Shown: positions 6,731 through 42,737, counted from the stretch's first letter. The stretch: 64,000 nt of DNA from a virus (IMGVR_UViG_3300032731_000668:1-64000), one strand, 5' to 3'. Notes: generated from the letters alone by a model not told the origin. Made by a program: numbers and translations.

Positions 6731-6859
6731 TTTAAAATTTGACGAAGAAAAAATTGCGAAATTGGCGTTTGATAAGTTTGACTATAAATATCAGAATGGT
6801 AATTTAATATATAATTATGTTGCAGAATCAGATTAAATAAGGAATAAAGGAAAACAAAA

Positions 6860-15192: not shown

Positions 15193-15402
15193 ATGGCACT
15201 AAGGAAAATTAATAAAGCATATAAGAAAGTAAATAATCAAATCGCTTCTCAAATTGATAAGTCCAGCAAGTATTCAAGAGGGCTTGCTTATGAGGGTTAT
15301 CTCGGTGGTTATTTACAGGCTTTGCGTGACGTTACGGCAGTATTGAGAAAAATTCCAGTATCTCATAAAATGGCAATGTATTGGGAAGAGGAGCCAAAAT
15401 GA
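15193..15402 (+). CDS. hypothetical protein (69 aa)
   Basis: ORF with GAGGTAAAAG RBS. Confidence 0.5.
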   Translation: MALRKINKAYKKVNNQIASQIDKSSKYSRGLAYEGYLGGYLQALRDVTAVLRKIPVSHKMAMYWEEEPK

Positions 15403-15752
15403 CTAAAAAATTAAACGAAAAAATGGCGGAAGTGATGGGGTGGCATAAGGGAAAAGGCACTAAATCGGTATTCTCTGGTCTCACGGTTATTTGGTGGCGA
15501 GATAGTAATGATGAAGCACAATGTAAACTTTTCGACTGGAATCCCACAGAGGACTTGAATCAGGCGGTGCGGTGTGTGTTTAAGTCTGGCGCATCAAAGG
15601 TTTCAATTACAGAGGTTGATGTTGATAGGTATATGGCAAGCATTTATCCAGATTGTTTTTCAGACGATAATAAGCCAACATGCAAAATTTCTAATACTGC
15701 TTCACTCGCCATCTGTGAAGCAATCCGAGAAGCGATACTTGAAACAAGATAA
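15399..15752 (+). CDS. hypothetical protein (117 aa) in a locally GC-richer segment
   Basis: GGAG RBS before ATG 15399; composition differs from its neighbours. Confidence 0.5.
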   Translation: MTKKLNEKMAEVMGWHKGKGTKSVFSGLTVIWWRDSNDEAQCKLFDWNPTEDLNQAVRCVFKSGASKVSITEVDVDRYMASIYPDCFSDDNKPTCKISNTASLAICEAIREAILETR

Positions 15753-21284: not shown

Positions 21285-21296
21285 GAAATTGCACCC

Positions 21297-21325
21297 TTGA
21301 CAAAAATTGATTTATATGATAGAAT
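21297..21325 (+). promoter_or_regulatory. sigma70-like promoter TTGACA-17-TAGAAT
   Basis: TTGACA 21297-21302, TAGAAT 21320-21325. Confidence 0.6.
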
Positions 21326-21355
21326 ATAGTGTAATAAGAATATAAAAGGAGCAAG

Positions 21356-21547
21356 ATGAATATTCAAGAAGTTATGAAAGCCGGTCTACCTTTTCGCCGC
21401 AGAGGATGGATAGACGATGATGTTTTTATAGTTTATGAAAAAGGCGACATAGTGTTTACAATGGAGGAAGACGATCTTTCGTCAGCCAACATAGATTGCG
21501 AAGACATTCTTTCTGAGGATTGGTATATAAAAAATGACTGTAATTAA
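21356..21547 (+). CDS. small acidic protein (63 aa)
   Basis: ORF with AAAGGAG RBS. Confidence 0.5.
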   Translation: MNIQEVMKAGLPFRRRGWIDDDVFIVYEKGDIVFTMEEDDLSSANIDCEDILSEDWYIKNDCN

Positions 21548-21551
21548 TCTA

Positions 21552-21575
21552 GGCAACTATATACCTGACGCACAA
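21552..21575. repeat. 24-nt direct repeat ggcaactatatacctgacgcacaa, copy 1
   Basis: 22/24 identical to 22091-22114. Confidence 0.7.
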
Positions 21576-21605
21576 GTTATGTCTACAAAAACAATAGGAA
21601 TTTAA

Positions 21606-21782
21606 ATGAGTATTAAAAATAATCTTATAAAAGACAAAGAAACAAACAATTTATCATCTTTAAAAGATGTACTAAAAATTGCTAAAGAAATAGATAGTTT
21701 AAAAGTAATGCATATTTCAAAAGACTTGATTTTTAGAATCGCAATTCAAATTCATTTTTTGAAAAAGATTGAATTACCTTAA
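21606..21782 (+). CDS. hypothetical small protein (58 aa)
   Basis: Below the track cutoff; converges on the minus-strand gene. Confidence 0.35.
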   Translation: MSIKNNLIKDKETNNLSSLKDVLKIAKEIDSLKVMHISKDLIFRIAIQIHFLKKIELP

Positions 21783-21967
21783 TCTTTAATCAATATTGAT
21801 TCAGAAATTGTTTTTAATGTTTTTACATAGGCATTTGTAAACTTTTCAAGAAGTTGCTCTTGTGGTTCATCTGCCGATGAATTTGATACGACCGCTACTT
21901 TGACAATTTCCCAAGCTATAGAGGCATAGGCAACATGTATGTTTTCAGTATTTGGTAAGTCTGACAT
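21779..21967 (-). CDS. hypothetical protein (62 aa); the only minus-strand gene with good support
   Basis: Lies in a gap free of + ORFs; GAAAGGATAATAT-ATG RBS on the minus strand; divergent from the + genes at 22144. Confidence 0.45.
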   Translation of the reverse strand: MSDLPNTENIHVAYASIAWEIVKVAVVSNSSADEPQEQLLEKFTNAYVKTLKTISESILIKD

Positions 21968-22090
21968 ATATTATCCTTTCAAAATAGATTATGAATCAAT
22001 TGTATATTAAAAATTATATATTGTGTCTCAACATTATATATTACAAGAGAAAAGAAAGGAAACAAATTGAAACTAAATTATTTAAAAAAT

Positions 22091-22114
22091 GGTAACTATA
22101 TACTTGACGCACAA
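22091..22114. repeat. 24-nt direct repeat ggtaactatatacttgacgcacaa, copy 2
   Basis: Matches 21552-21575; sits just upstream of CDS 22144. Confidence 0.7.
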
Positions 22115-22143
22115 AATAGATTTTACCCCCTAAAAAGGATAAA

Positions 22144-22719
22144 ATGGGGGTTATGGGAAACTATAAAATACAAGACAGCAAGTTTATTCATTGGGTGCTC
22201 GAAAACATTTCTTGGGATATTTTCAGATGGTTTTGTGATTTATTATTTTCAATTTGCTGTACTCAAAAAATTTTTATCTATCCAAATATTCAAAAATGGT
22301 TACTTGCAATGAATATTCCTATGGTTGTATCAATACTTGGAATATTTATTATTATTTTTGTTATTACTTGGATATTTTTATCGTTGGTTGAGTGGTTGTA
22401 TAAAAAAATTAATTTTATCTTATTTTTGAAAAAACAAAAAGAAATAGTAATAAATACTTGGAATCTAGTAAATATCTCAGTAGAAAATTCTTTGTCATTT
22501 TTACAAGGGGTATCTTATTCAAATGAACCAAGTTTACAAGAACAATGCAAAATAACAAGAAATAGCGGTAAAGAATTGATGGAATATTTTCAAGACAAAG
22601 ATAATGGACTGAGTTGTTTTATAGAGCAAAGAAGAATAAAACAGACGAATTCTATACGCAAATGCCCGATATTGAGGCAGAAATGCGCCTCTATAAAGAC
22701 CAGTTTCGCGGTAAGGTAA
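22144..22719 (+). CDS. membrane protein (191 aa, 2-3 TM)
   Basis: AAAAGGATAAA RBS; hydrophobic segments; first gene of the higher-GC island. Confidence 0.55.
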   Translation: MGVMGNYKIQDSKFIHWVLENISWDIFRWFCDLLFSICCTQKIFIYPNIQKWLLAMNIPMVVSILGIFIIIFVITWIFLSLVEWLYKKINFILFLKKQKEIVINTWNLVNISVENSLSFLQGVSYSNEPSLQEQCKITRNSGKELMEYFQDKDNGLSCFIEQRRIKQTNSIRKCPILRQKCASIKTSFAVR

Positions 22720-22722
22720 TTT

Positions 22723-23925
22723 ATGGCACACATCAATCTCGCTAATGCTAAAAAGGTAAAGAACGACGAATTTTATACGCAATATTTTGATATTCAGAAA
22801 GAAATCTCGACATATTTAGAACACAACCCTGATGTCTTTCGGGGTAAGACTGTGCTTTTACCCTGTGATGACCCTGAATGGAGCAACTTTACCAAGTTTT
22901 TTGCCCAAAATTTTGAGCGGTTCGGGTTGAAAAAACTCATCAGTACAAGCTACGCTGTAAATAGCAAAACCTATAAGGGCGGATACCAACCAACGCTCTT
23001 TGAAACAAGTGCCCTCCAATTTGACGAAAATAAAACTGTGGAAAATGGGAAAATTTTCACACTGACCCACGACAAGACAGGTGACCGCAAGGTTGATGTG
23101 AATGACCTAGAATGGCTCTATCTTAAGGGTGACGGCGATTTTCGTAGCGACGAGATCAAAAAGTTTCGTGACGAAGCCGACATCATCATTACTAATCCAC
23201 CATTTTCGCTTTTCCGTGATTTTTTGGCATGGATAATGGAGGCTGACAAACAATTTGTAATAATAGGTAACCTAAATGCCATTACCTATAAAGAGGTATT
23301 CCCGTTACTTAAAGAAAACAAGGTTTGGTTAGGTAATAATTGTAAAGTAAATGGTGGTGCAATGTTTTATGAGATACCAGAAGACATTGCTAACTTGGAC
23401 CAAGTTCGTGAAATAAGGACAAACGAAATTGGCAAGGAGGTTTATATTACCAGGGTACAAGGTGTTCGTTGGTTTACCAATCTCGACCATGGGCGTCTTC
23501 ATCAACCCTTACCACTAATGACAGAGTCAGAGGTAGTCAAGTTCGTAACGAAAAAGCCATTTGTTAAATATGATAATTACGATGCAATAGAAGTATCGAG
23601 AGTTAAAAACATTCCAAGCGATTACAACGGAGTAATGGGAGTACCGGTTAGCTTTCTCGATAAATACAGTCCAGAACAATTTAAAATTTTGGGGGCAACA
23701 CAAAGAGGTTGTCATGATGAATTCCCTGACACAAAAAAATATAATGACTATAGCGAAGTAAGACAAAATGGGGAAAATACAGGTTCTTCTGGCGGAAAAA
23801 CAAATGAAAATGGGAATTTAGTTGGTAATGACGGAAAAAAGAATTATTTCATAAATGAAGATGGCAGAATAATTCAATCTGTGTATCAAAGAATATTCAT
23901 CAGACATAGGAATAAAACAACATGA
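22723..23925 (+). CDS. N6-adenine DNA methyltransferase, gamma-class-like (400 aa)
   Basis: DEFYTQ (FxTP-like motif X), catalytic [14 protein letters not shown]; local GC about 45%. Confidence 0.85.
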
Positions 23926-25091
23926 AAACAATCTTAATAACTGACATTACTGTCAAAAATATCTGCGAAGGATTTGTCTATAACGAACTTGAGGGCAAAG
24001 GACTATTTGGCTTGTCTGGCAAGTTAACCATCCAGCCAGAGTATCAGCGTAACTATATTTATGCATCCGATGGTGGTAAAAAAGAAGTTGCGGTGATTGA
24101 ATCCCTGCTGAAAGGATACCCATTGGGCTTAATTTATTTTAACAAAGTGAGTGATGAAAAACTGGAAGTGCTTGACGGTCAACAACGTATAACCAGTTTT
24201 GGACGATTTGTAACTAACAAATTTGCTATAAAAGATGAAAATGGCATGGAGCAATATTTCAGTGGTATTGCGGCTGATAAGCAATCTAAGATCTTGACAA
24301 CGGAACTGCTTATTTATGAATGCGAAGGGATTGAAAGTGAGATAAAAGAGTGGTTCAAAACGATCAATATTGCTGGCATACCACTTAATGATCAGGAACA
24401 GCTGAACGCCGTGTTTTCTGGGTCATTCGTGACACTTAGTAAGGCGGAGTTTAGTAACAGTCAGAATGCCAATATCCAAAAATGGAGAGCGTATATTAGA
24501 GGCAGTGTCAATCGACAGCATTTATTGGAACGCGCTCTTGATTGGGTTAGCAAAGGCAACATTGACGATTATATGAGCCGCCATCGGTACGACAACAACA
24601 TTACAGAGTTAAAAACGTATTTCAACAGTGTAATTGATTGGGTTTCAAGCGTATTTGTTGATGTAGAGGGTGAGATGCGCGGATTGGAGTGGGGACGATT
24701 GTACGAAGAGTATCATAATACATCTTATGACCCTGCAAAGGTTTCAAAAGATGTGCAAAAACTTTATGGCGATCCGTATATTAAAAACCGTAAGGGTATT
24801 TTTGAGTACATTCTTGGCGGTTCAATTGATACAAAATTATTAAATGTCCGAGTCTTTGATGATGCAACCAAGAATAATGTTTATTCAACACAGACTGCTA
24901 AGACCGAAGCTAAAGGTGAATCAAACTGTCCGCTCTGTGCTATTGGATATGATGCCAACAAAAGTAAAATCTGGAAGTTGAACGAAATGGATGCCGACCA
25001 TGTATCGGCATGGAGCAAAGGTGGCGCAACAGATATTAGCAATTGTCAAATGTTATGCAAAACTCACAATAGGGCAAAAGGAAATAAATAA
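23922..25091 (+). CDS. DUF262 (DGQQR ParB-like) + C-terminal HNH nuclease, GmrSD/type IV restriction-like (389 aa)
   Basis: LDGQQRITS motif in the N-terminal domain; C-terminal CPLC...[12 protein letters not shown]...[13 protein letters not shown] motif. Confidence 0.85.
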
Positions 25092-25260
25092 ATCAGATTT
25101 GTGCGATAGTTATATAATTACCAAAAATTAGCGTGCTCTATAGCGATTTTTGATAGCAATAATGATTATGAAGTGGCTAAATTCAACTTGTGTGTCAAGT
25201 ATATAGTCGCCTAAATTAATGTTTGCGTATAGATTAACCTCAAATCTTTCCAATAAAATA

Positions 25261-25287
25261 AATACCACATAAAACAAGAATTTTATC
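25261..25287. repeat. intergenic inverted-repeat element (ACCACATAAAA...ATTTTATC)
   Basis: aataccacataaaacaagaattttatc, immediately upstream of promoter 25293. Confidence 0.7.
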
Positions 25288-25292
25288 TGGTC

Positions 25293-25321
25293 TTGACAGG
25301 TTTTGAAATATATGATATAAT
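25293..25321 (+). promoter_or_regulatory. consensus sigma70-like promoter TTGACA-17-TATAAT
   Basis: TTGACA 25293-25298, TATAAT 25316-25321. Confidence 0.65.
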
Positions 25322-25337
25322 AATCAAGAGGAAATAT

Positions 25338-25529
25338 ATGGATAATAAAATTCCAATAGAAGAATTGCTTGAAGACTTTGGGGTAGAGAATGAGGACGAG
25401 CTGTACGCCAAATTAACGGATGATTCTAACACTATTCCATGCATCGTATGCGGGAAAGAAATTCCGATAGAAGAAATTAGAATTGTTGGTGATGATCCAT
25501 ATTGCAAGAGGTGCAAGAATAGTTTATGA
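25338..25529 (+). CDS. small zinc-ribbon protein (63 aa; CIVCG...CKRCK)
   Basis: AAGAGGAAATAT RBS before ATG 25338; the track ORF 25293 would begin inside the promoter. Confidence 0.5.
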   Translation: MDNKIPIEELLEDFGVENEDELYAKLTDDSNTIPCIVCGKEIPIEEIRIVGDDPYCKRCKNSL

Positions 25530-25858
25530 ACATTATTTTGAAATGGGATAGTAGTAGAGTTACTATAGAACAATTCGCCAATATGTGTAGATCTTATGCG
25601 GGACTGATGCCACAATATCAGATAGTTTATCATCTAATTGATATGGTTGCAACAATGGCTTTTGATACAGATATTAATGATTATGTTGATAAAGATGTTG
25701 CTATAAAAGTTTTGACTAAATTTAGTTATTATGATTTTTCTTTATTGGCCAAAGAATTAAATAAACAACAAGAAGAAAACGGGTTATTATTGATGGCACA
25801 AAATTTATTTGGAAATAATGTTAAGTTTTCGGAAACTAAAAAACACAATAAAATATAG
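25526..25858 (+). CDS. hypothetical protein (110 aa)
   Basis: ORF overlapping the previous stop. Confidence 0.55.
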   Translation: MNIILKWDSSRVTIEQFANMCRSYAGLMPQYQIVYHLIDMVATMAFDTDINDYVDKDVAIKVLTKFSYYDFSLLAKELNKQQEENGLLLMAQNLFGNNVKFSETKKHNKI

Positions 25859-25978
25859 ATTTTATGAGGAAATAAGATGAACATATATATTCAAATAGTT
25901 GTTGGTCTGTTGATAATAGTGGCATTTTTTTGCGTTATTTGTATCGGAGTTCTAATGATACAAATGCTAAAAATGAAG

Positions 25979-26007
25979 TAAACACAATAAAATGTACGTT
26001 TTATCAT
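25979..26007. repeat. intergenic inverted-repeat element (AACACAATAAAAT...TTTTATCAT)
   Basis: taaacacaataaaatgtacgttttatcat. Confidence 0.7.
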
Positions 26008-26099
26008 ATAAAAGGAGAATCATATATGGATTAACAGAAAAAATATTGAAGAAAAATAAATAATAAAATAAAAAATAACAATAGGAAGGTTTTATATAG

Positions 26100-27203
26100 A
26101 TGAATAACAATATAGATACACAGAAAGTTAACAGATGGATTAGAAGAGCCGTAAGTGGTGTGGTTGTTTTAATCATACTAGTTGTTTTTTTGGCGAATTC
26201 GTTTGTTTTAAAACGTGTTGAGCCTACTGAAATGGCAATTATTACTAGAGGCGGACAATTACAAAGTGTAGTTGGTTCGGGTACATATACTCAGTTTGGT
26301 TTTTTGAAAAAATCTAAACTCGATACATTCTCGGTTGCTATTATTCCTTTGAATTCTACTGACCCCGAAGTTTTGACGAAACCAACAGACAACAGTAAGA
26401 ATGATGAAAGTTCCGTTGGTATGCCTGTTGGATTTGAAATTGTTGGCGATATTCAGATTCCCACTGATCCCATAACTCTGATGAATAATTGGGCAAGATA
26501 TGGAGTAATGTATAAAAATCCTGAAACTCTTGAAGAAAGAGTTGATAGTTTTACAAGAGAAGCTATGAAAGTTTGTGGTGGTGCATTCACTTTTTATGAA
26601 ATCACTGCCTTAAGACGTGTCGAGTTTGCTACCTGTATTTCTGATGCTGTTACAGACAAGGTTGAAAAAGAGTATAGCGTAAGGGTAACGAATGTTACAA
26701 TTGCTAATATTATTTTAAGTAATACAGTTCTTGAACGTATCAACGCAGTTATTGACTTACAACAGCAGGTGGACTTAGAAAAACAAACAGCAGAACTAGC
26801 TACTGCTACCGGTGAACGAAAAGAAGCGGAAAATACGGCTTCAATTCAAGCTACAATGGCTACAGCGATAGAACAAGCAAAACAAGACGCAATTCTTGCT
26901 GTCCAAGAAGCTATAAGTGTTGCCTCACGACAAGAAGTTGTTATTGCCAAAATAGACTTGATTGCATTACAACAAGATTTGGCAGACGAAGAACTCACAT
27001 TGGCAAAAACAAAAGCTGTTGAACATCTTTCTAATGAAGCTCGTATGGCTGAAATTTTGCAAGGAAGTCCTAACTATTACAGTTTTTTGGTCGCAGAGTT
27101 GAACTCAAAAGCATTACAGAATGTTGACAAATTAATTGTTTCAGATGAAGGAACCGCACCACAAATTGTTATGGGCATAGATACAGTATATTCAGTAAAA
27201 TAA
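26100..27203 (+). CDS. SPFH/band-7 (prohibitin/stomatin/HflK-like) membrane protein with coiled-coil tail (367 aa)
   Basis: N-terminal TM, then a band-7-like core (VEPTEMAIITRGGQL...), then an Ala/Gln/Glu-rich coiled coil; GC-richer than the phage backbone. Confidence 0.7.
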   Translation: MNNNIDTQKVNRWIRRAVSGVVVLIILVVFLANSFVLKRVEPTEMAIITRGGQLQSVVGSGTYTQFGFLKKSKLDTFSVAIIPLNSTDPEVLTKPTDNSKNDESSVGMPVGFEIVGDIQIPTDPITLMNNWARYGVMYKNPETLEERVDSFTREAMKVCGGAFTFYEITALRRVEFATCISDAVTDKVEKEYSVRVTNVTIANIILSNTVLERINAVIDLQQQVDLEKQTAELATATGERKEAENTASIQATMATAIEQAKQDAILAVQEAISVASRQEVVIAKIDLIALQQDLADEELTLAKTKAVEHLSNEARMAEILQGSPNYYSFLVAELNSKALQNVDKLIVSDEGTAPQIVMGIDTVYSVK

Positions 27204-27223
27204 ACTATAGATAGAATTAATAG

Positions 27224-27279
27224 GGAAGGCTTTAGTTGGCGGAACATTACGTTTGCGAGTTCGAATCTCGCCCTTCCTT
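27224..27279 (+). tRNA. tRNA-like element lacking a D-arm (acceptor stem + anticodon-like hairpin + canonical T-arm), about 56 nt; pseudo-tRNA or recombination remnant
   Basis: 7-bp acceptor gggaagg/ccttcct, 5-bp hairpin with a 7-nt loop, T-stem gcgag/ctcgc with the consensus T-loop TTCGAAT; too short for a canonical tRNA and no CCA. Confidence 0.45.
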
Positions 27280-27581
27280 ATAAATAAAAAAATAAACATA
27301 AAGGAGGCAACATAAACATGATAAACTGGACTGATTTTTTATGCCTTGTTTTACCGCTTGTAATATTATTAATAGTAGCATTATGTGTACCGCTTATAAG
27401 GAAAAAATAAAATGACTCAAAAAATAAAAGAAATGCGTGTTTTTAAAGACGGAGATGCATGGTGTTTTGTGTTATCGGATTTTAAAAATTTACAAGAGTC
27501 TCCTTCTGCATGGCTTGATGAAACAGACACCAATATGGATATTATTCATGAACAATTGGTTGAAACAATGGAAGAAGACGG

Positions 27582-27606
27582 ATAAAATGTATATTTTATG
27601 TGGTTT
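27582..27606. repeat. intergenic inverted-repeat element (ATAAAAT...ATTTTATGTGGTTT)
   Basis: ataaaatgtatattttatgtggttt. Confidence 0.7.
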
Positions 27607-28365
27607 AAGGCAATAGTGAATAAGAAAAATTTGTTAATATGGGGTATTATAGGGTTGTTGTTATTTGGTGCATGCGGACAACCCTTTGATCTTCAAGTAT
27701 CTGAGCGGTTGCAATCTGCTCCTATAGCAAATATTGCCGAAGAAGCTATTGCGGAAGTCGCTGTTTGTGAGACTCCCCAGACTCGTTTTTTGAAAGATTA
27801 TCCCGATATTGCAATTGCACTTGGGGACAGTATTTCTATTGAAGATTATGATAGCGAAGTTGTCCAACTACACCTAACCGATTTGAATAAATTTCCTCCA
27901 GATATTCTAAGGGAAATTAAAAATTTTGGGTATAGGATTAGAGTTGGGGATAAAACAGTTACCGATTTCTCTGGGTTTGAGCATTTGAAAGGTTTGACCC
28001 CTCGTGGATGGGAAGGGACAGGACTAACTTGGGATGATGCTGCGGGGTGCAATAGCCGAAGCAAAATAACTGTAATCCTTGGTAATGGAATTCATTCATC
28101 TTCGAGTCTTGCATTACATGAAATAGCTCATGCGATTGACCATGTAATGGGAATAACCAAACTCCCCGAAATGGAATATTTTCATAAAAAAGCGTACAAT
28201 GGACTTGATGAATATTTTAAGCAAGATGGTCCTGGTGGTGAAATAGGAATGAAGGAGATGTTTGCTGAAAGCGTAGCCAATATTTTTCAAGATCAAGACT
28301 ATTGGAGTAAAGAATATGAACAGTTTGTTAAAGATATATTAGGAGTAAAAGAGGGTGGTTATTGA
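27598..28365 (+). CDS. secreted lipoprotein zinc metalloprotease, HExxH (anthrax lethal factor / M34-like) (255 aa)
   Basis: Signal peptide plus LLFGAC lipobox; LALHEIAHAIDH zinc-binding motif; GC-richer. Confidence 0.7.
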   Translation: MWFKAIVNKKNLLIWGIIGLLLFGACGQPFDLQVSERLQSAPIANIAEEAIAEVAVCETPQTRFLKDYPDIAIALGDSISIEDYDSEVVQLHLTDLNKFPPDILREIKNFGYRIRVGDKTVTDFSGFEHLKGLTPRGWEGTGLTWDDAAGCNSRSKITVILGNGIHSSSSLALHEIAHAIDHVMGITKLPEMEYFHKKAYNGLDEYFKQDGPGGEIGMKEMFAESVANIFQDQDYWSKEYEQFVKDILGVKEGGY

Positions 28366-28397
28366 GAAAACACGATAAGATAATGGTTTTATTGCAC

Positions 28398-28426
28398 TTG
28401 ACAAATATTGAATTATGTGATACAAT
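28398..28426 (+). promoter_or_regulatory. sigma70-like promoter TTGACA-17-TACAAT
   Basis: TTGACA 28398-28403, TACAAT 28421-28426. Confidence 0.6.
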
Positions 28427-28447
28427 TATATGTTTAGAGAATAAAAA

Positions 28448-28656: not shown

Positions 28657-28845
28657 ATGACTTATGTATATCAATGTAAAAAATGCAAAAAAGAATTTGA
28701 ACTTGTTGCTGGTTTTTTAACAATCTTATCATTAGAAAAACAATGTCCTCATTGTGGATCTAAAAAAGTGGCAAGAAAATTTGTTCCTATTGATTTTATT
28801 TTAAAGGGAAATGATTTTTATAGAAACAACAAAGAAGACAAGTGA
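28657..28845 (+). CDS. FmdB-type zinc-ribbon protein (62 aa)
   Basis: YQCKKCKKEF...CPHCGS pattern. Confidence 0.5.
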   Translation: MTYVYQCKKCKKEFELVAGFLTILSLEKQCPHCGSKKVARKFVPIDFILKGNDFYRNNKEDK

Positions 28846-30149
28846 ACATAGATCAAAAAATTATAAATTTTATTAAAGAGATAGAAAAAGATTTACGCAT
28901 TCCTGCATGTGTTCATAATAACTTTGACAATTTTGTACCCTATGAGACCCCTGTTTACTATTCTGGGCCATATTGGAATGATTTAGAAATTTTGGTGGCA
29001 ATTAAAACATTGATTTTGGGCGATTGGATTAGCGCAGGAAAGAATGTTCAAGAATTCGAAAAACAATTTGCAAAAGTTATTGATGAAAAATATGGAATAA
29101 TGGTAAACAGTGGTTCATCTGCAAACCTAGTAATGATTACAGCTTTAAAAAAATATTTTAATTGGAATGATGGTGATGAGATAATAGTGTCAGCAGTGGG
29201 GTTCCCGACTACAACCTCTGTTATTGTCCAAAACAATTTGACACCCATATTTATTGACATAGAAATGCAAACTCTAAATTTTGATTTGAATTTAATTAAA
29301 GAAAAAATTACCAAAAAAACAAGAGCAATATTCCTGTCCCCCGTTTTAGGCAATTCTCCCGATATCGATGTAATAAAAGAAATATGTATGAAGTATAACC
29401 TACAACTAATTTTAGATGATTGCGATTCTCTGGGAAGTAAATGGGATGGAAAATTTTTAAATAAATACTGTGTTGCTTCTTCTCATTCCTTTTATGCAGC
29501 CCATACAATTTCCACAGGAGAAGGTGGAATGATTGTTACTAGCAATGCGAAAATTGCTAAAATTGCCAGAAGTTTAGTGAACTGGGGTCGTGATTGCCAT
29601 TGTTATGGAAGTGAAGGATTAATTCCTGATGGGGCTTGCGGACATAGATTTTCAAATTGGCTCAGAAATTATAACGGGATTGTAGATCATAGGTATGTTT
29701 TTTCTAATATGGGATATAATTTCAAGCCATTGGATTTGCAGGGTGGTATCGGAAACGTCCAATTGACTAAACTAGAAGAAATATATCAAAAAAGAAATAT
29801 AAGCAAACAAAAAATCACCGAAATATTTAGTCGAATAGAGGGTGTAGATAACCCGATACAATTAAATAAGGCTAATACTATATGGTTCGGCACCCCTTTT
29901 ATCTGTCAAAATAAAAAATTAAAACAAAATCTTGTGTCATTTTTAGAAAGTAACAAGATTCAGACCAGAAATTATTTCGCGGGAAATATATTACTTCATG
30001 AAGGATATGAAACTTTAGGTAATTTCAATGATTATCCTAACGCAAATTTAGTGTTGGACTTAGTATTTTTTGTCGGGGCTTCGCCTCATTATAATGATAA
30101 AATATTTGACTATTTTAAATCTGTTTTGAAGGAATTTAAAAATGAATAA
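28842..30149 (+). CDS. DegT/DnrJ/EryC1/StrS-family sugar aminotransferase (435 aa)
   Basis: DGDEIIVSAVGFPTT...IFIDIE and SFYAAHTISTGEGGMIVT (PLP-lysine region) motifs. Confidence 0.85.
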   Translation: MNIDQKIINFIKEIEKDLRIPACVHNNFDNFVPYETPVYYSGPYWNDLEILVAIKTLILGDWISAGKNVQEFEKQFAKVIDEKYGIMVNSGSSANLVMITALKKYFNWNDGDEIIVSAVGFPTTTSVIVQNNLTPIFIDIEMQTLNFDLNLIKEKITKKTRAIFLSPVLGNSPDIDVIKEICMKYNLQLILDDCDSLGSKWDGKFLNKYCVASSHSFYAAHTISTGEGGMIVTSNAKIAKIARSLVNWGRDCHCYGSEGLIPDGACGHRFSNWLRNYNGIVDHRYVFSNMGYNFKPLDLQGGIGNVQLTKLEEIYQKRNISKQKITEIFSRIEGVDNPIQLNKANTIWFGTPFICQNKKLKQNLVSFLESNKIQTRNYFAGNILLHEGYETLGNFNDYPNANLVLDLVFFVGASPHYNDKIFDYFKSVLKEFKNE

Positions 30150-30840
30150 TGGCATTATTGTTCTTGGATATGGATTACTCGGAAAAGAAATAACAAAACA
30201 AACCGATTGGAACTATATAAGTCGCAAGGAACACGGTATCGATTTTAATAAAACTGATTGGTATCATCACATTCAACGTTATGATACAATTATAAATTGT
30301 ATTGCAAATACTAACACATATTCACACGAAAGAGAAGACCATTGGCCGACCAATTATATAAGCGTAATGAATTTAGTAGACTGGTGTAATGAAAATAATA
30401 AAAAAGCTATACAAATTTCTACAGACTATATTTACAGTGGGTCTAATCGTAATGCCTCTGAGGAAGACATTCCTCTACATAATAAAACTTGGTATACATA
30501 TACAAAACTACTTAGCGACGCCTATGTACAAGCAAGGGCAAAAAATTATTTGTTGATTCGAACATCTTTTAAGCCAACACCTTTTCCATACCCCGAAGCA
30601 ATTGTTACTCAGACTGGTAATTTTGATTATGTCGATAAAATATCAAAATTGATTATTGAACTTATTAATAAAAATGCTTTCGGTGTTTTTAATGTGGGAA
30701 CACGGAGGAAAACTATATATGATCTAGCAACTAAAACTAATCCAAATATTATAGGTGCATTTCGAATATTAAATAAAGAAATGCCAAGAGATGTAACAAT
30801 GAATGTTTCAAAAATGGAGAATTTTTTAAATGAAAGTTAG
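30142..30840 (+). CDS. RmlD-like dTDP-4-dehydrorhamnose reductase family protein, short form (232 aa)
   Basis: ISTDYIYSG (RmlD STDYVF motif), YTYTKLLSD (YxxxK), LLIRTSF. Confidence 0.7.
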   Translation: MNNGIIVLGYGLLGKEITKQTDWNYISRKEHGIDFNKTDWYHHIQRYDTIINCIANTNTYSHEREDHWPTNYISVMNLVDWCNENNKKAIQISTDYIYSGSNRNASEEDIPLHNKTWYTYTKLLSDAYVQARAKNYLLIRTSFKPTPFPYPEAIVTQTGNFDYVDKISKLIIELINKNAFGVFNVGTRRKTIYDLATKTNPNIIGAFRILNKEMPRDVTMNVSKMENFLNES

Positions 30841-31570
30841 CATAGCAATTCCAGTTTATGAAATGGGTGGAAGAGGTACAGAATTTTTAAAATACTGTCT
30901 TCGCTCTATTTTATTGCAAACGCATCCTGTGTATGAGATAGTCATCTCAGATCATTCAAAAAATGATGACATTCTTGATCTTTGTAGTCCATGGCCACCA
31001 AACGTAAAATATGTTCGAAATAAAGAAAATTACGGTGTTTTTGCGTCCAACATGAATAATTGTTTTAGTTATTGTACCGGCGATATTATTAAAATTATGC
31101 ATCAGGACGACTTCTTTTATAGAATGGATTCTTTATCGAAAATTGTAAACAATTTTGATTTAGATAAAGGTTGGTTACTAACTACATATTATCATTCTAG
31201 AAATGGGAAAGATCTTTTTAAATTACATACCCCAAGTATTAAGGAATGTCCTTTGTTTATTAATAAAATTGGTGCACCTACCTGCCTAACAATTAAGAAT
31301 GAAGATATTCTTTATTTTGATGAAAATTTAAAGTGGTATGTAGACAGTGATTACTACGTAAGGTTGTTGACAAAATATGGACTCCCTGTGATTTTAGAAA
31401 AGCCAACAGTGGTACAGCGATTATGGGAAGGACAGGTTACTAATACAATAATACATAAGGATGTGATTACAGAAGAAATATTGTATTTATATAAAAAGCA
31501 TGACGTAAAACTAGAAGACCTGACTGAAATAATAGGAAGACTTGGGTATTGTGAGGCATATGAAGATTAG
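30830..31570 (+). CDS. family 2 glycosyltransferase (246 aa)
   Basis: VSIAIPVYEMGGRG...ISDHSKNDD GT-A N-terminal signature; paralog of the next gene. Confidence 0.75.
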   Translation: MKVSIAIPVYEMGGRGTEFLKYCLRSILLQTHPVYEIVISDHSKNDDILDLCSPWPPNVKYVRNKENYGVFASNMNNCFSYCTGDIIKIMHQDDFFYRMDSLSKIVNNFDLDKGWLLTTYYHSRNGKDLFKLHTPSIKECPLFINKIGAPTCLTIKNEDILYFDENLKWYVDSDYYVRLLTKYGLPVILEKPTVVQRLWEGQVTNTIIHKDVITEEILYLYKKHDVKLEDLTEIIGRLGYCEAYED

Positions 31571-32258
31571 TATTGCGATTCCTACTTATGAAATGAGTGA
31601 TCGTGGAGTCGAATGTTTAGACTACAATTTTAAAAAAATTCACCAACAAACGTTCAAAGACTTCAACGTGATCATCTCTGATCATTCGAAAGATGATAAA
31701 ATTTTTCATTTATGTAATATGTGGGGCAAAAAATTGAATATCAAATATATCAAAAATGAAAAAGATAGAGGTTCGCTATCAAGTAACTTAAACAGTTGTA
31801 TAAAAAATTGTAGCGGAGAAATAATTAAGTTCATAATGCAGGATGATTATTTTTACCATAAAAATTCATTAGAAAAAATTGTAAATAGGTTTGGTATAGG
31901 CAAAAGATGGCTGGTGTCTTCGTATTTTCATACAAATGACAGAATAAAACTTTTTCGTTTGCATATACCTGAAATTAGTAAAGACATGCTTCTTATTAAT
32001 CGTATCGGAACCCCTACATGTCTTACTATAAAAAATAATATTGATATTAAATTTGACTTGAAATTAAACTGGTATGTAGATTCAGATTATTATACACAAT
32101 TATATAAAACATATGGTAAGCCAGTTATTTTAAGAGATCCAACTGCGGTACAACTTCTTTGGGAAGGCCAAACAACGAACACAATTATCAATGAGAAAAT
32201 TATTAAAAATGAAGAAATATATCTTATGAAAAAATATGGGGCATATAGAAATGGATAA
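31560..32258 (+). CDS. family 2 glycosyltransferase, tandem paralog (232 aa)
   Basis: ISIAIPTYEMSDRG...ISDHSKDDK; about 45% identical to 30830-31570. Confidence 0.75.
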   Translation: MKISIAIPTYEMSDRGVECLDYNFKKIHQQTFKDFNVIISDHSKDDKIFHLCNMWGKKLNIKYIKNEKDRGSLSSNLNSCIKNCSGEIIKFIMQDDYFYHKNSLEKIVNRFGIGKRWLVSSYFHTNDRIKLFRLHIPEISKDMLLINRIGTPTCLTIKNNIDIKFDLKLNWYVDSDYYTQLYKTYGKPVILRDPTAVQLLWEGQTTNTIINEKIIKNEEIYLMKKYGAYRNG

Positions 32259-32910
32259 AATTCAAATTCCTGAATTAACCCTTATCGCTGTATCATCTAT
32301 AAAAATAGATGAAACTATTTTGGCTTTACAGAAGAGTTATAAAGATATTTTATTTGGATCTATAAAACTAATTACACATGAACGCCCAGAAATTTTACCT
32401 AAAGAAATTAGTTTTGAAGAATGTCCTAAATTAGATGATATAAATAAATATAATCATTATGTTTTTATAGAATTAGGTAAACACGTAAAAACAAGTCATT
32501 GTTTATTAATCCAACATGATTCTTGGGTATTAAGCCCCAAGTTATGGGACGATGATTGGTTGCAATATGATTATTGTGGTAGTCCGTGGGAATGGAAAAC
32601 TAATTCATACCAAACAGATTATGGAGAACATGTCAGAGTAGGAAATGGCGGATTTTCTCTGAGATCTAAAAAGCTTTTAGATATACCTAAAAAACATAAT
32701 ATGTATCTAAAATCTGAGAAGGGGTGGAAAAACGAAGATGGACAAATTTGCGTTTATTGGCGAAAAGAATTATTAGATTATGGAATCAAATATGCACCCG
32801 TTGAAATAGCATCAAAATTTTCTTATGAAAATCCAGTTCCTGAGAATAACTTTGGGAAGATGAAAACTTTTGGATTTCATAAGAATTTAAATACAGGGAA
32901 TAAGAGATAG
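32236..32910 (+). CDS. hypothetical protein in the glycan locus (224 aa)
   Basis: ORF overlapping the previous stop; no confident motif. Confidence 0.55.
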   Translation: MGHIEMDKIQIPELTLIAVSSIKIDETILALQKSYKDILFGSIKLITHERPEILPKEISFEECPKLDDINKYNHYVFIELGKHVKTSHCLLIQHDSWVLSPKLWDDDWLQYDYCGSPWEWKTNSYQTDYGEHVRVGNGGFSLRSKKLLDIPKKHNMYLKSEKGWKNEDGQICVYWRKELLDYGIKYAPVEIASKFSYENPVPENNFGKMKTFGFHKNLNTGNKR

Positions 32911-32916
32911 GCCAAA

Positions 32917-33903
32917 ATGATTATTTCTAAAACAGTTTTTGTTCAAGTGGCAGGACAACGTTCTTATTATATTAATAAAGGATACAATCTGACGCCATAC
33001 ATGTACAAAAATAGAAAGGGGAAAATGGTAATACCCCGCGGAACAATTATTGAAGTAAGGGTAGACGACCTTCCGCCGCGAAGTTCAAGAAAAGTTTTAG
33101 CCCAATGCGATAATCCAAAATGTAAAAAAGAACGTTGGGTAGAATACGAAAAGTATACCTCTCTATGCCATAGATGCGCTCTACAAACAGAATCTTATAA
33201 AACTAATAATGGAAATGCAAATAGAGGTAAAAAAAGAACTGCTGGCCAAAAAGAAAGAAAGAGAAAACCAAACTATCTGGTTAGAGGCAAAAATAACATT
33301 AATTGGAATAAAAATATATCTGAAAAAGACAGGCTAAAAACAAACGAAAAAAGTAGGAATAGCGTAGAATATAGAGCGTGGAGATTGTCTGTTTTTAGAA
33401 AAAATTGTTATCAATGCCAAAATTGTGGGTATACCGGTAGAAAAATAAATGCCCATCATATAGAAAGTTATTTTACAAATAAAGACTTAAGGTTTGATGC
33501 TGACAACGGAATAGTATTGTGTACAAATTGCCACAAATTGTTTCACAGCACATATGGAAAAACAGGAAATCATAAGTACCAACTCGATAAATTTTTAAAA
33601 AATAATAAAAACAAAAAAGAATTTGTTAAGTTAAAATTTGATATTCATAAAGATACTCGCCAAGGAAGAAAAAATGTAAACAACAATGATTCCAGCATAT
33701 ATGTTGGTGTATCAAAAAATAAAAACAGAAAAAAATGGGAGGCCGGAATATACCATGATAAAATAAAATATTATTTAGGAATGTTTGAATATGAAGTTGA
33801 GGCGGCAATGGCCTATAATGAAGCGGCGTCAGAAATATGGGGATGGAAAGCAATCTTAAATAAAATAACAGAAGACGATATTATTAAATTATGGGAAAAC
33901 TAA
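32917..33903 (+). CDS. HNH homing endonuclease with C-terminal AP2 DNA-binding domain (328 aa)
   Basis: CQNCGY...HHIESY...NGIVLCTNCHKLFH HNH motif; YVGVSKNKNRKKWEAGIYHDKIKYYLGMFEYEVEAAMAYNEAA AP2-like. Confidence 0.85.
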   Translation: MIISKTVFVQVAGQRSYYINKGYNLTPYMYKNRKGKMVIPRGTIIEVRVDDLPPRSSRKVLAQCDNPKCKKERWVEYEKYTSLCHRCALQTESYKTNNGNANRGKKRTAGQKERKRKPNYLVRGKNNINWNKNISEKDRLKTNEKSRNSVEYRAWRLSVFRKNCYQCQNCGYTGRKINAHHIESYFTNKDLRFDADNGIVLCTNCHKLFHSTYGKTGNHKYQLDKFLKNNKNKKEFVKLKFDIHKDTRQGRKNVNNNDSSIYVGVSKNKNRKKWEAGIYHDKIKYYLGMFEYEVEAAMAYNEAASEIWGWKAILNKITEDDIIKLWEN

Positions 33904-34625
33904 TGCCTTCTATTGCTTTTCAAACATCGTGTTACGAAAAATCATATAAACATTTACTTAAAAATGGAGTTCTAAATCACTATCTTTCATTATTTCAAGA
34001 TATTGATTTTGAAGAAAAGACGGTTATAGTAAATAATGTTTCAGACCATAATAATATCAAATCCTTATTTAAAAATTTCAATAATATCGATTTTATTTTT
34101 TCTGAAAAAAATCCAGAAACAGTTTTAAGTTTTTTCAATTTATCTTTGTTGGATTTTCAGATAGGATTATATTATTCTATTCAGCATTTTACGGGAATTT
34201 ATTATACACAATGCGATTACTTGTTTCATGTTAGTGAAGATTGTGGGATCGATAATCTTGATTCTAACTTTATAAAAGAATCTGTAGAAATGCTAGAATC
34301 AAATGAAAAATATATTATTGCTATGCCGAGATGGTGTGAAGACGACAACGCAATTGAAAAAACTGAACCGGAGAGTGATAAATTTTTTATACAATATGGA
34401 TTTACTGATCAAATATATATTATAAAAACAAAAAAATTCAAAGAAGATATATACCATTATAGCCACCCTATGTCTGAAAGATATCCTAAGTATGGTGGCG
34501 AATGCTTTGAAAAAAGAATCGATTCTTTTATGAGATGCAATCAACATTATGGAGTTGTACATAAAAATTATATTTATGACAGCAAACATTATGATGCAAT
34601 AATAAAACAATATAAGGAGATATAA
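33891..34625 (+). CDS. hypothetical protein in the glycan locus (244 aa)
   Basis: ORF overlapping the previous stop. Confidence 0.55.
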   Translation: MGKLMPSIAFQTSCYEKSYKHLLKNGVLNHYLSLFQDIDFEEKTVIVNNVSDHNNIKSLFKNFNNIDFIFSEKNPETVLSFFNLSLLDFQIGLYYSIQHFTGIYYTQCDYLFHVSEDCGIDNLDSNFIKESVEMLESNEKYIIAMPRWCEDDNAIEKTEPESDKFFIQYGFTDQIYIIKTKKFKEDIYHYSHPMSERYPKYGGECFEKRIDSFMRCNQHYGVVHKNYIYDSKHYDAIIKQYKEI

Positions 34626-34628
34626 AAA

Positions 34629-35978
34629 TTGAAAAATAATAATCCATACGGAATGAAAGTTCCAGAATCTTTTTTTGTTGTCTCTAATTGGAATAACGAT
34701 GTTTCTTGGGTAGAAAAATATACAGATAACTATATTATATATGATAAAAGTAACACGTTGCCAGCCAATGATAGAACCATTAAACTAAAAAATGTTGGCT
34801 ATAATGTTTATGATATGGCTCATTTTATTGTCAACAATTATGATAATCTCCCCGAACTAACTGCCTTTCTTCAGGGAAATCCCTTTGACCATTGCAAGAA
34901 AGAAACATTCGATAGGTTGATTTATAACACATGTTTTACTCCACTTGAAGATTATACAGATGTGCCAGAATCAAACGCCCATATAAAAGATGTTGACGGT
35001 GGCTATATGGAAATTAATAATTCTTGGTATTTCAGAACGCATAGACAAGAACATGGTGCCGAAGTTGAAAAATATGTAACATCATATAATCGATTTCTAG
35101 ATGAAATATTCGAAAGTCCAGAGCATTTAAAATGGATTAGGTTTGCGCCTGGCGCGCAATATATTGTACCAAAAGAAAATATATTGTTTTATAGTAAAGA
35201 ATTTTATAGAAAATTGATGAGGTATGTTGACTATCATAGAATACCGTCGGAAGGATTCGCTTTAGAACGAGCAATGTATTATATTTTCACTAATAGATGG
35301 AGAGAAAGAATGAATGATGAGAAAAAAGAGTTAAATGAATTAGACATATTGGCAAGAAAGTATGGGACAGATAAAAGAACCAACGACACACTCCCAAGCA
35401 TTTATCATGGGTACACAGATACTTATTATAATTATTTATTTCCCGGAAAACTTGGGATAAAGAATCTGTTAGAAATTGGTGTAAGTAAAGGGTCATCTCA
35501 TTATATGTGGGCAGATTTTTTACCTAATGCTATGATTTATGGAATCGATAATTTTTTAGATCCTTCCTGTACTGTCAGTAAAGAGGAACTTGAATCAAAT
35601 CCACGAATAAAGATTATTGTTGGCGATCAATCAGATAAACTTGTTTTGAATAAATTTAAAGAAATTCCGTTAGATGTTATAATAGATGACGGTTCTCATT
35701 TTTCCTGGGATCAACAAAGAAGTTTCGATGTTCTTTGGGACTTTTTATTGCCAGGAGGATATTATTTTTTTGAGGACTTGGGGGAAAGTTTTAATAATGA
35801 CTTTAGAGAATTTGAGGATATGCGTTCTGCCACCGTTAGATGGCTACATACAATGAAAAAAGGAAAGGTTCCGTTTTCATATTATACTAGAGAAAGCAAG
35901 ATGGAAAGAATTTTTAAAGAGATTCTATCAGTAAAAGCTTTTGGCGAACTTGTTGTAATCCAGAAAAAGATTATATGA
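34629..35978 (+). CDS. two-domain protein: N-terminal domain paralogous to 36565-37212, C-terminal class I SAM methyltransferase (CmcI/TylF-like) (449 aa)
   Basis: LLEIGVSKGSS...IIDDGSH SAM-MTase motifs; N-domain shares LPELTAFLQGNPFDHCKKETFDRLIYNTCFTPLEDY with the 36565 ORF. Confidence 0.65.
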   Translation: MKNNNPYGMKVPESFFVVSNWNNDVSWVEKYTDNYIIYDKSNTLPANDRTIKLKNVGYNVYDMAHFIVNNYDNLPELTAFLQGNPFDHCKKETFDRLIYNTCFTPLEDYTDVPESNAHIKDVDGGYMEINNSWYFRTHRQEHGAEVEKYVTSYNRFLDEIFESPEHLKWIRFAPGAQYIVPKENILFYSKEFYRKLMRYVDYHRIPSEGFALERAMYYIFTNRWRERMNDEKKELNELDILARKYGTDKRTNDTLPSIYHGYTDTYYNYLFPGKLGIKNLLEIGVSKGSSHYMWADFLPNAMIYGIDNFLDPSCTVSKEELESNPRIKIIVGDQSDKLVLNKFKEIPLDVIIDDGSHFSWDQQRSFDVLWDFLLPGGYYFFEDLGESFNNDFREFEDMRSATVRWLHTMKKGKVPFSYYTRESKMERIFKEILSVKAFGELVVIQKKII

Positions 35979-36568
35979 ATAAAAAAGAAGTATTAGAACA
36001 TGCATTGTCGTTTAAGTATGGCGGGATGTTGGAAGTTGAATTGGGTTATGTCTATGACATATGCGCCAACAAAAACGTTTTAGAGTTGGGAAGCATGGTA
36101 GGCATGAGTAGCTATGTTATTGCTTCTGTCGCAAAAAGTCTTTCATGTGTTGATGTATGGTCTGATACATGGGAACATCTAGCACACGATCCAATACAAC
36201 AAAAGATTTACGAGCAATTTACAGGTGTTATTTTATCTATGCATGAAAGTTTTAAAAGAAACTGCAAAACTTTTATTGATTCTAAAAAAATTAGAATGTA
36301 CAAGGGAAATACAAGAGAGATGGTCGATAAATTCTTAGATGAAAGCTTTGACGTTATTTTAATAGATGCCGACCATTCTTATGAAGGTGTATTACGTGAT
36401 TTTAATCTTTATCAAAATAAAATAAAAGATAATGGATATATTGTTTTTCATGATTATGGTGATTCTATGTGGACAGGAATTGCCCAATTGGCAAATGAAA
36501 TGGCTTCTCAAAATAAGATAAAAATAGTGGGAAGAGTTGAAAGAATAGGAGTGTTTAAAAAAATATGA
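35975..36568 (+). CDS. class I SAM-dependent O-methyltransferase (197 aa)
   Basis: VLELGSMVGMSS (motif I) ... ILIDADHSYEGV ... IVFHDY. Confidence 0.75.
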   Translation: MNKKEVLEHALSFKYGGMLEVELGYVYDICANKNVLELGSMVGMSSYVIASVAKSLSCVDVWSDTWEHLAHDPIQQKIYEQFTGVILSMHESFKRNCKTFIDSKKIRMYKGNTREMVDKFLDESFDVILIDADHSYEGVLRDFNLYQNKIKDNGYIVFHDYGDSMWTGIAQLANEMASQNKIKIVGRVERIGVFKKI

Positions 36569-37212
36569 AACAACCAAAAGCTAAAATAATTATAAGTCGC
36601 TTCAAAGAGGATTTTGATTGGGTAAAAGAATATACCGAAGATTATCTTATATATAATAAAGGTGAGCCTATTGATGATCCACATATAATAAATACAAAAA
36701 ATATTGGAGGAAATCAAAGAGATATTTTTAAGTTTATCCATGATTTTTATGATGACCTACCCGATCTGATGGCTTTTATGCAGGCATATCCATTCGACCA
36801 CTGTAAAAAAGAAACGTTTGACAAACTAATTTATAACGAGTGTTTTACTTCGCTTGAGGACTATGGGGTAATACCCGCAAACGCATATGAAAAAAGAGAT
36901 CACGATGGCGGGTTCCTGGAAAGAAATAATAGCTGGTATATAGAAGCCAACAATGCAACCTACAATGTTGGTTGTAAATATTCTTCTTTTGATCAGTTTA
37001 TGGAAAAATTCTTTTCAAACTATAAAACAGGTGCACATGTTAGATTTGCGCCAGGTTCTCAATATATTATAGAAAAAAAACAAGCGTTACATTATCCAAA
37101 AATATTTTGGAGAAGTTTAATGAATGAACTTCCGGAGAACTTTATGTCTGAAGCACATATTATTGAAAGATCTTTATGGACGATACTGCAATGTGGCTTA
37201 ATAATGAGGTAG
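36565..37212 (+). CDS. hypothetical protein paralogous to the N-domain of 34629-35978 (215 aa)
   Basis: Shared conserved block ...AFMQAYPFDHCKKETFDKLIYNECFTSLEDY. Confidence 0.55.
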   Translation: MKQPKAKIIISRFKEDFDWVKEYTEDYLIYNKGEPIDDPHIINTKNIGGNQRDIFKFIHDFYDDLPDLMAFMQAYPFDHCKKETFDKLIYNECFTSLEDYGVIPANAYEKRDHDGGFLERNNSWYIEANNATYNVGCKYSSFDQFMEKFFSNYKTGAHVRFAPGSQYIIEKKQALHYPKIFWRSLMNELPENFMSEAHIIERSLWTILQCGLIMR

Positions 37213-37215
37213 ATT

Positions 37216-41831: not shown

Positions 41832-41846
41832 GGAGTATACTAATAT

Positions 41847-42713: not shown

Positions 42714-42737
42714 AAAATCATTGAGGAGTATATTATA

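Follow-up and report, generated by a model that had tools for sequence, protein, structure and literature searches.

Within a 64,000-nt stretch of DNA assigned to a virus (IMGVR_UViG_3300032731_000668:1-64000, hereafter the window), the 6.2 kb at 22144-28365 stand out as richer in guanine and cytosine (GC) than the AT-rich DNA around them, and the question is whether they arrived together. An earlier note on this DNA took the region for one horizontally acquired island of accessory or defence genes with a local GC of about 40-48%. We find it probable that the region is instead a composite, in which a cassette of two imported genes, an EcoRI-family N6-adenine DNA methyltransferase and a DUF262-HNH nuclease, lies next to genes of the phage backbone and to flexible genes that have long been resident.

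Base composition of the region

The window as a whole has a GC content of 31.2%, and 22144-28365 has 35.1% against 30.8% in the remainder. The region ranks first among all windows of 6.2 kb (z 2.4, matched by none of the background windows), so it is indeed the most GC-rich stretch of its size, although the levels claimed for it were too high: the maxima are 39.5% in 1-kb windows, 41% in 500-bp windows and 45.5% in 200-bp windows, and only 22% of the 200-bp windows reach 40% or more. Further, the rise is broken into three blocks with backbone-like DNA between them (Table 1). The change points of the GC profile at ~22640 and ~25035 match the homology junctions of the cassette as described below.

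To put the single genes on a common scale we used 50 background genes of at least 100 amino acids (aa) as baseline, with a mean GC of 0.316 +/- 0.028 and a mean GC at third codon positions (GC3) of 0.250 +/- 0.041. By this measure the methyltransferase and nuclease genes are outlying in GC3 while the SPFH and peptidase genes further downstream are normal, hence only the methyltransferase-nuclease pair is compositionally foreign. The excess GC of the SPFH and peptidase genes is confined to codon positions 1 and 2 (GC1 0.50-0.52, GC2 ~0.36), and we ascribe it to their amino-acid composition. As neither these two genes, nor the ORF 22144 (open reading frame) part, nor the spacer at 25.1-26.1 kb deviates in GC3, 22144-28365 does not behave as an island over its whole length. 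The analysis of GC and codon usage proposed in the earlier note thus gives a split answer, with a clear deviation for 22603-25091 (GC z 3.6, GC3 z ~3) and none in GC3 for the SPFH and peptidase genes.

It could be argued that there was no horizontal transfer at all, and that the rise reflects the amino-acid composition of a few genes. This is true for the SPFH and peptidase genes, and other genes of the window have a similar GC (for example 15381-15752 at 41%). As an account of the entire rise we give it next to no credence, and for 22603-25091 it is already refuted, as the cassette has a GC3 of 0.36-0.38 (z 2.7-3.1), shares nucleotide identity with copies in unrelated cells, and has sharp junctions, one of them with a pseudogene relic. 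It should be noted more generally that a raw GC bump can blend a true import with genes that are merely GC-richer because of their amino acids, and that GC3 together with a comparison of relatives separates the two.

Table 1. Features in and around 22144-28365, in order of position; values of z refer to the figure that they follow.
Feature	Position	Strand	GC (z)	GC3 (z)	Description
Sigma-70-type promoter	21296..21326	+			TTGACA-17-TAGAAT, TG-extended -10; opens the transcription unit that holds the cassette
Repeat copy A	21543..21578	+			~30-36-nt repeat, core ACTATATACYTGACRCACAA
Repeat copy B	22086..22136	+			direct relative to copy A, 539 nt further on; immediately 5' of ORF 22144
Segment	22144-22602		25.9%		
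ORF 22144	22144..22719	+			uncertain, 191 aa (the 'membrane protein' of the earlier note); AT-rich to ~22602
Cassette segment	22603-25091		38.4% (3.6)		
Methyltransferase relic	22603..22722	+			120 nt; first ~40 codons of a second, different EcoRI-family methyltransferase gene
EcoRI-family N6-adenine DNA methyltransferase	22723..23925	+		0.359 (2.7)	400 aa; NPPF motif; PF13651 at 4.1e-119
DUF262-HNH nuclease	23922..25091	+		0.377 (3.1)	389 aa; PF03235 at 4.7e-19, PF01844 at 5.7e-8
Segment	25092-26099		28.3%		
Repeat copy C	25166..25220	-			inverted; 75-130 nt past the nuclease stop codon
Sigma-70-type promoter	25292..25322	+			perfect TTGACA-17-TATAAT with TG; opens the following transcription unit
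Zinc-ribbon-like protein gene	25338-25529	+			63 aa; backbone
Small gene	25526-25858	+			110 aa; backbone
SPFH/Band-7 membrane protein	26100..27203	+	36.5%	0.236 (-0.3)	367 aa; hydrophobic N-terminal segment; PF01145 at 1.3e-11
Segment	27204-27597		31.7%		
tRNA-derived remnant	27223..27278	+			56 nt; acceptor stem and canonical T arm, no anticodon arm (fold)
ORF 27412	27412..27585	+			57 aa, between the SPFH and peptidase genes; called in L002; no family match
M34/PPEP-like zinc metallopeptidase	27598..28365	+	38.3%	0.277 (0.7)	255 aa; lipobox LFGAC, HEIAH motif; PF07737 (ATLF) at 8.3e-18
Sigma-70-type promoter	28397..28427	+			opens the downstream sugar/glycosyltransferase unit

The gene at 15381-15752 (+) is a second compositional outlier of the window (GC z 3.4; GC3 0.363, z 2.8) and has a weak Phage_ABA_S match in the JGI annotation of this contig.

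Junctions of the imported cassette

The segment 22603-25091 combines atypical composition with sharp homology junctions, is absent from relatives and also occurs in unrelated genomes. At the nucleotide level it is homologous to other cassettes between the ATG of the methyltransferase gene and the stop codon of the nuclease gene, with alignments that start at 22717 (at 22603 with the loci L024-L026) and end at 25085-25092. In front of the methyltransferase gene lies the relic of a second methyltransferase gene, which in the phage is frameshifted and lacks a start codon. This relic is found only in the window and in L024-L026, loci of one cellular lineage; homology to L024 begins at 22603. Since homology to L024-L026 reaches 120 nt further 5' than that to the other cassettes, we take 22603-25091 as the imported unit, and the alignments point to immediate common ancestry of the phage cassette and the L024-type cassette. 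According to the frame analysis the last ~39 codons of the ORF at 22144-22719 run out of frame across the relic. This ORF gave no match in Pfam, PHROG, PADLOC or NCBIfam, hence the membrane protein listed in the earlier note is left without a homologue, while the methyltransferase, the DUF262-HNH nuclease, the SPFH protein and the ATLF peptidase of the same list were all recovered by Pfam.

In L024 the left flank of the cassette (1-1638) is AT-rich too (33.8% against 46% in the right flank) and encodes a NucS_C-like protein. The island in this lineage may exceed two genes.

The best backbone relative, L010, has no cassette, SPFH gene or peptidase gene, but it does carry homologues of the two genes at 25338-25529 and 25526-25858 (57% and 37.5% identity), whose GC is 27-34%. 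A single contiguous 6.2-kb island, taken up in one piece and delimited by promoters and repeats, is very improbable and in our opinion already largely refuted. That the region is the most GC-rich 6.2-kb window, that its closest relative L010 lacks the cassette and both of the flexible genes, and that all three copies of a repeat lie in or beside it are points in favour of such an island; they are outweighed by GC dips to 25-28% at 22144-22602 and 25092-26099, by the backbone homologues of the genes at 25338-25858, by the normal GC3 of the SPFH and peptidase genes, and by a cassette homology that stops at 25091. In addition, the peptidase holds its position before a promoter in another contig (L027), the promoters belong to a class found throughout the window, and no integrase or transposase was found inside the region. 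Horizontally acquired defence cargo is thus an apt description of the methyltransferase-nuclease cassette, but not of the rest of 22144-28365, where GC3 is normal or backbone homologues exist.

The two cassette genes

The methyltransferase matches the PADLOC model MTase_II at 1.6e-87 over nearly its full length. The string TNPPFSLFR is invariant across the methyltransferase alignment, in which the phage protein appears as a mosaic of three family lineages. The nuclease has an N-terminal DUF262 domain (ParB/Srx-like, with the DGQQR motif) and a C-terminal zinc-ribbon HNH domain, and matches the PADLOC restriction endonuclease model REase_II PDLC03418 at 1.4e-79 over residues 8-389; it also matches the DUF262-type PADLOC models NsnA and PD-T4-2_A. 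Both its DGQQR motif and the motif CxxC...DH...N...CxxC...HN are invariant in the alignment. The methyltransferase and nuclease genes overlap by 4 nt (ATGA, stop of the first and start of the second) and are translationally coupled.

For the nuclease the ratio of nonsynonymous to synonymous substitution rates (dN/dS) is 0.05-0.07, with ~0.07 in pairs that include the phage copy, and the synonymous rate dS is 0.9 or saturated. Purifying selection and not recency hence explains its conservation, and recent transfer was rejected as the cause.

With an N6-adenine methyltransferase, an adjacent nuclease that matches a restriction endonuclease model and has an intact motif, and a linkage that is kept across genomes, the cassette has the features of a Type II system. 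The best-supported reading is accordingly worded with some care: the genes look like a Type II-like restriction-modification pair, predicted to be co-transcribed with phage genes.

Spread and conservation of the cassette family

A search with the nuclease gave at least 8000 cluster representatives, and among the best 120 the identity does not fall below 82%. At least 582 GTDB species-representative genomes carry a nuclease of the cassette family, and 80 of these loci (L031-L110) were kept for locus analysis. Their nucleases have 77-85% aa identity to the phage nuclease, and they come from Chloroflexota, Bacteroidota, many Patescibacteria, Omnitrophota, Desulfobacterota, Gammaproteobacteria, Bacillota, Verrucomicrobiota, Planctomycetota, Elusimicrobiota, Ignavibacteria, Chlorobi, SAR324 and one Pacearchaeota bin. 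An EcoRI-family gene lies immediately 5' of the nuclease gene in 64 of the 80 loci; among the remaining 16 it is found 2-4 kb upstream in nine, and in six the locus is truncated by the contig end.

Plasmid copies were seen in Enterococcus, Moraxella, Arthrobacter, Rhodococcus and Lactobacillaceae, and the neighbour of the plasmid nuclease carries the annotation 'EcoRI family' methyltransferase. The same adjacent pair is present in Flavobacterium phage laban6-1, in an Anaerolineales chromosome, in genomes of the candidate phyla radiation type and in the cellular lineage of L024-L026. Among 50,697 phage records the nuclease is carried by laban6-1 (two records) and by two uncultured 'Bacteriophage sp.' records. 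Few methyltransferase-nuclease pairs in public data are as widespread and as conserved as this one.

The GC content of the cassettes is 0.41 +/- 0.05 while their flanks span 0.30-0.60 (for example 37.7% within 55.8%), and the phage cassette with 38.4% in a background of 31% fits this host-independent pattern. Nucleotide identity between the phage cassette and copies in unrelated cells is 77-85% for the nuclease gene, and 69-81% and patchy for the methyltransferase gene.

Function of the pair and known restriction systems

Restriction-modification systems borne by phages and other viruses are known in general. The present cassette resembles Type II systems made of a PF13651 methyltransferase and an HNH endonuclease, in that both consist of two adjacent, co-oriented and overlapping genes. 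It has an NPPF N6-adenine methyltransferase, a nuclease with an intact HNH motif and PADLOC Type II matches for both, and like these systems it acts as a mobile unit on chromosomes, plasmids and phages. Unlike them, it has a nuclease with an N-terminal ParB-like DUF262 domain of NTPase (nucleoside triphosphatase) type, which outdoes the methyltransferase in conservation. This exact combination of a methyltransferase with a DUF262-HNH nuclease is not described in the literature searched.

The counterpart in Flavobacterium phage laban6-1 (gp007/gp008, MN812211) is the same pair, with 67% and 77% aa identity. There, however, the two genes have the GC of the phage itself (30% against ~31% in the flanks), so they look ameliorated or resident; they are oriented opposite to the neighbouring tail genes and have no methyltransferase relic upstream.

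The 2.49-kb cassette at 22603-25091 was probably imported into the phage out of a very large pool shared among many phyla, and is predicted to be transcribed with phage genes from the promoter at 21297. If the genes act as a Type II-like pair, the methyltransferase would mark a specific site on the phage DNA, and also on the host DNA during expression, and the nuclease would use its ParB-like nucleotide-binding N-terminal domain and its C-terminal HNH site for cutting unmarked DNA. The phage may in this way be shielded from hosts that carry the same system, and may obtain a weapon against unmodified DNA of the host or of a co-infecting phage, and the pair may also persist selfishly.

A number of observations weigh against this picture. 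Co-divergence was examined in 51 adjacent gene pairs from the window, L001, L019, L021, L024 and L031-L110, and in these the mean pairwise identity is 80% for the nucleases (minimum 71.5%) and 54% for the methyltransferases (minimum 29%). Two methyltransferase clades with only 47% identity between them are partnered by nucleases that are 79% identical. A slow nuclease with a fast, mosaic methyltransferase turns the usual restriction-modification pattern around, and such inverted conservation is somewhat at odds with two enzymes strictly matched in specificity. An NTPase-like DUF262 domain is characteristic of Type IV and modification-sensing enzymes and not of classical Type II enzymes. Neither could a recognition sequence be inferred, as we saw no clear avoidance or excess of palindromes, and GAATTC, CAATTG and AATT are all near expectation. 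With regard to the import itself, the exact empty site was not found among the backbone relatives, whose synteny is poor, and the replicon is read as a probable phage from its replication-type PHROG matches (clamp, ligase, ATPase), its homing-endonuclease genes and the relatives of its ligase in huge uncultured phages.

The cassette could also be mainly a means of anti-restriction, where the methyltransferase is selected because it protects phage DNA from the same system in hosts and the nuclease is a passenger or addiction partner. Candidate host phyla carry the cassette very often, the phage has two or more further methyltransferase genes (12687-13463 and 61108-61836), and many phage matches to the methyltransferase family have no nuclease counterpart, as in mycobacteriophages. 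We nevertheless hold this to be unlikely, as the phage nuclease ORF is full-length with all catalytic motifs and is under strong purifying selection (dN/dS ~0.07). The two further genes, of which 12687-13463 (+) is of N6 type (MTS/N6_Mtase-like, PHROG 'DNA methyltransferase') and 61108-61836 (+) matches N6_N4_Mtase PF01555 at 1e-29, bring the number of methyltransferases on the replicon to at least three.

Another family of enzymes must be considered. GmrSD, BrxU and SspE share with the cassette nuclease an N-terminal DUF262 domain with DGQQR, a motif defined for DUF262 earlier (PMC4619093), and, broadly taken, a C-terminal nuclease of the His-Me finger kind. In contrast to GmrSD and BrxU, the C-terminus of the cassette nuclease is a PF01844/PF14279 HNH with a CxxC...CxxC zinc ribbon, with no DUF1524 at E values up to 0.01; it has 389 aa where the BrxU chain has 587 aa; and most of the loci examined link it to a methyltransferase, whereas GmrSD and BrxU are stand-alone enzymes. 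As it has no DUF1524 and does not stand alone, it does not belong to the GmrSD family. Sequence and profile searches of PDB with the nuclease returned only chance matches and a marginal one to BrxU 7p9k at E ~1, which covers the DUF262 motif only. The AlphaFold2 model of the nuclease, with a predicted local distance difference test score of 35, is too poor to use; it came from a 9-sequence alignment in which all homologues are >77% identical.

Further, we speculate that the DUF262-HNH protein may be no classical Type II enzyme matched to one sequence but a modification-sensing, NTP-dependent effector, licensed or restrained by the methylation of any methyltransferase of the family. It would then be the NTP-binding effector of an uncharacterised methylation-linked system that reads N6-methyladenine (m6A), with interchangeable mosaic EcoRI-family methyltransferases. 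By analogy, SspE senses phosphorothioate on self DNA, and BrxU/GmrSD offer a further parallel. The DGQQR-bearing DUF262 domain shared with GmrSD, BrxU and SspE is consistent with this idea, as are the PADLOC matches to NsnA and PD-T4-2_A, and so is an ultra-conserved nuclease with mosaic partner methyltransferases of 29-47% identity and weak co-divergence (r 0.385). Weak as it is, the co-divergence is still significant (Mantel p ~0.001), methyltransferases that are 40% identical can share one target site, and the nuclease matches a curated Type II endonuclease model over its full length. On balance we regard a modification-sensing effector as a tentative proposal with a rather small chance of being right. 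If true, an effector reading m6A would explain why the nuclease is conserved across bacterial phyla and archaea (77-88%, dN/dS ~0.05) despite a partner at 29-47%, and the phage would have taken it as an offensive or exclusion weapon.

For this phage the finding is that a large AT-rich genome has gained a complete restriction-modification-type cassette and, apart from it, carries some accessory genes of membrane and protease type; neither phenomenon is new. The family may merit biochemical study, and its use by phages for exclusion or for degradation of host DNA could be of interest.

The SPFH gene, the tRNA remnant and the peptidase

The protein encoded at 26100-27203 scores 45.3 bits for Band_7 against a Pfam cut-off of 23.6 and is thus a member of the SPFH/Band-7 family. 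Two chromosomal contigs with 51-54% GC, one of which bears the label Anaerolineae, have genes ~70% identical to it whose own GC of 53-55% is native to these contigs, and a phage-like contig (L030) has a homologue at 72% identity. The gene was thus probably captured long ago from cells of an Anaerolineae-like kind and has since ameliorated. The Band_7 domain is held in common with the prokaryotic SPFH/Band-7 proteins (HflK/C, stomatin-like), but the protein of the window is phage-encoded, no NfeD partner was found in the neighbouring ORFs scanned, and a metallopeptidase gene follows ~400 nt 3' of it.

The tRNA-like fragment reported earlier is present at 27223-27278, with acceptor stem and T arm only. 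A genuine tRNA or tmRNA was rejected, as ARAGORN found none, no Rfam family reached its gathering score and there was no tRNA match even at an E value of 10. The string of the T arm and 3' acceptor is identical to the same part of genuine phage tRNAs, and in L030 an array of nine tRNAs (4546-6746) begins ~430 nt past the SPFH homologue, hence the fragment is best read as a decayed tRNA.

The N-terminus of the peptidase reads as a lipoprotein signal (LFGAC). In a comparison with PDB the protein matched PPEP-1/Zmp1 at 8e-16 with HExxH aligned and LHEIAHAIDH kept, which places it among the M34/PPEP-like peptidases. The ATLF domain, HExxH and downstream motifs are common to it and PPEP-1/Zmp1 of Clostridioides difficile, while the identity is low, and the peptidase of the window has a lipoprotein signal and is phage-encoded. 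It has just two close relatives, beyond which no identity exceeds 43%. In L027 a homologue at 79% identity is followed by the same promoter motif as at 28398.

The SPFH and peptidase genes thus appear to be flexible genes of the phage lineage which have long been resident, and not recent imports. Together with the tRNA remnant and the small ORF they would be part of the next transcription unit after that of the cassette.

Promoters and repeats

The three promoters at 21297, 25293 and 28398 were put forward in the earlier note as bounds of the island. All three are real, scoring 11-12 out of 12 with a TG-extended -10 and having a 31-nt motif in common, but strong promoters of the same class occur 14 times on the + strand of the window and once on the - strand. 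With 14 such promoters on the + strand we consider these three as ordinary starts of transcription units and not as island borders. A 'TTG start' of an ORF at 25293 was rejected because this TTG belongs to the -35 hexamer, and the gene start is placed at 25338 after the JGI call in L002.

The 24-nt direct repeats were found again, at 21552-21575 and 22091-22114, and an extra inverted copy lies at 25188-25207. Three matches in 64 kb compare with 0.03 expected. The copies A-C bracket ORF 22144 and the cassette but lie off the homology junctions of the cassette, and because of this mismatch the repeat was rejected as an element end. It was not found in other cassette hosts or in the backbone relatives. 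As an RNA structure copies A-C gave no consistent signal, as two of them fold no better than shuffles and copy C is borderline. Family searches of the ORFs in 21.3-28.4 kb showed no recombinase, the nearest integrase being at 54174-55091, and the region does not have the recombinase with att sites or terminal repeats at its ends that would mark an element mobilised by an integrase or transposase.

Two tiny ORFs lie between copies A and B, one of which is the sole minus-strand gene called in the region (21779-21967). The integrase at 54174-55091 (+) is of the tyrosine type (PF00589 at 7e-33), and just 5' of it a NUMOD3-motif protein, probably a homing endonuclease, is encoded at 53392-54111 (+).

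The replicon and its other genes

A near-identity DNA search with 20-30 kb against sequenced phages gave no match. The ATP-dependent ligase that flanks the region has metagenome relatives at 47-81% identity; a search of IMG/VR with the ligase gave no match, and one with the aminotransferase gave one distant, non-syntenic locus (L007).

Adenylosuccinate synthetase is represented by a similar protein of 355 aa at 57843-58910 (+), with matches to the PurZ-type PHROG 1211 at 3.9e-47 and to Pfam Adenylsucc_synt. The gene lies directly 3' of a phosphoribosyltransferase gene (57310-57843), and L010 carries a 69% homologue ~2.5 kb downstream of its ligase. An HD or MazG partner was not found among the nearby ORFs scanned. 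This PurZ-like gene may point to DNA with 2-aminoadenine (Z), or to no more than purine salvage.

Downstream of the region a long run of sugar-modification genes extends over 28842-48754 (+), with a DegT aminotransferase, an RmlD-like reductase, several GT2/GT1 glycosyltransferases, DUF5672, and DUF3431 plus a methyltransferase, an unusual bulk for a phage. Within this cluster the gene at 32917-33903 (+) has weak HNH and AP2 matches in Pfam.

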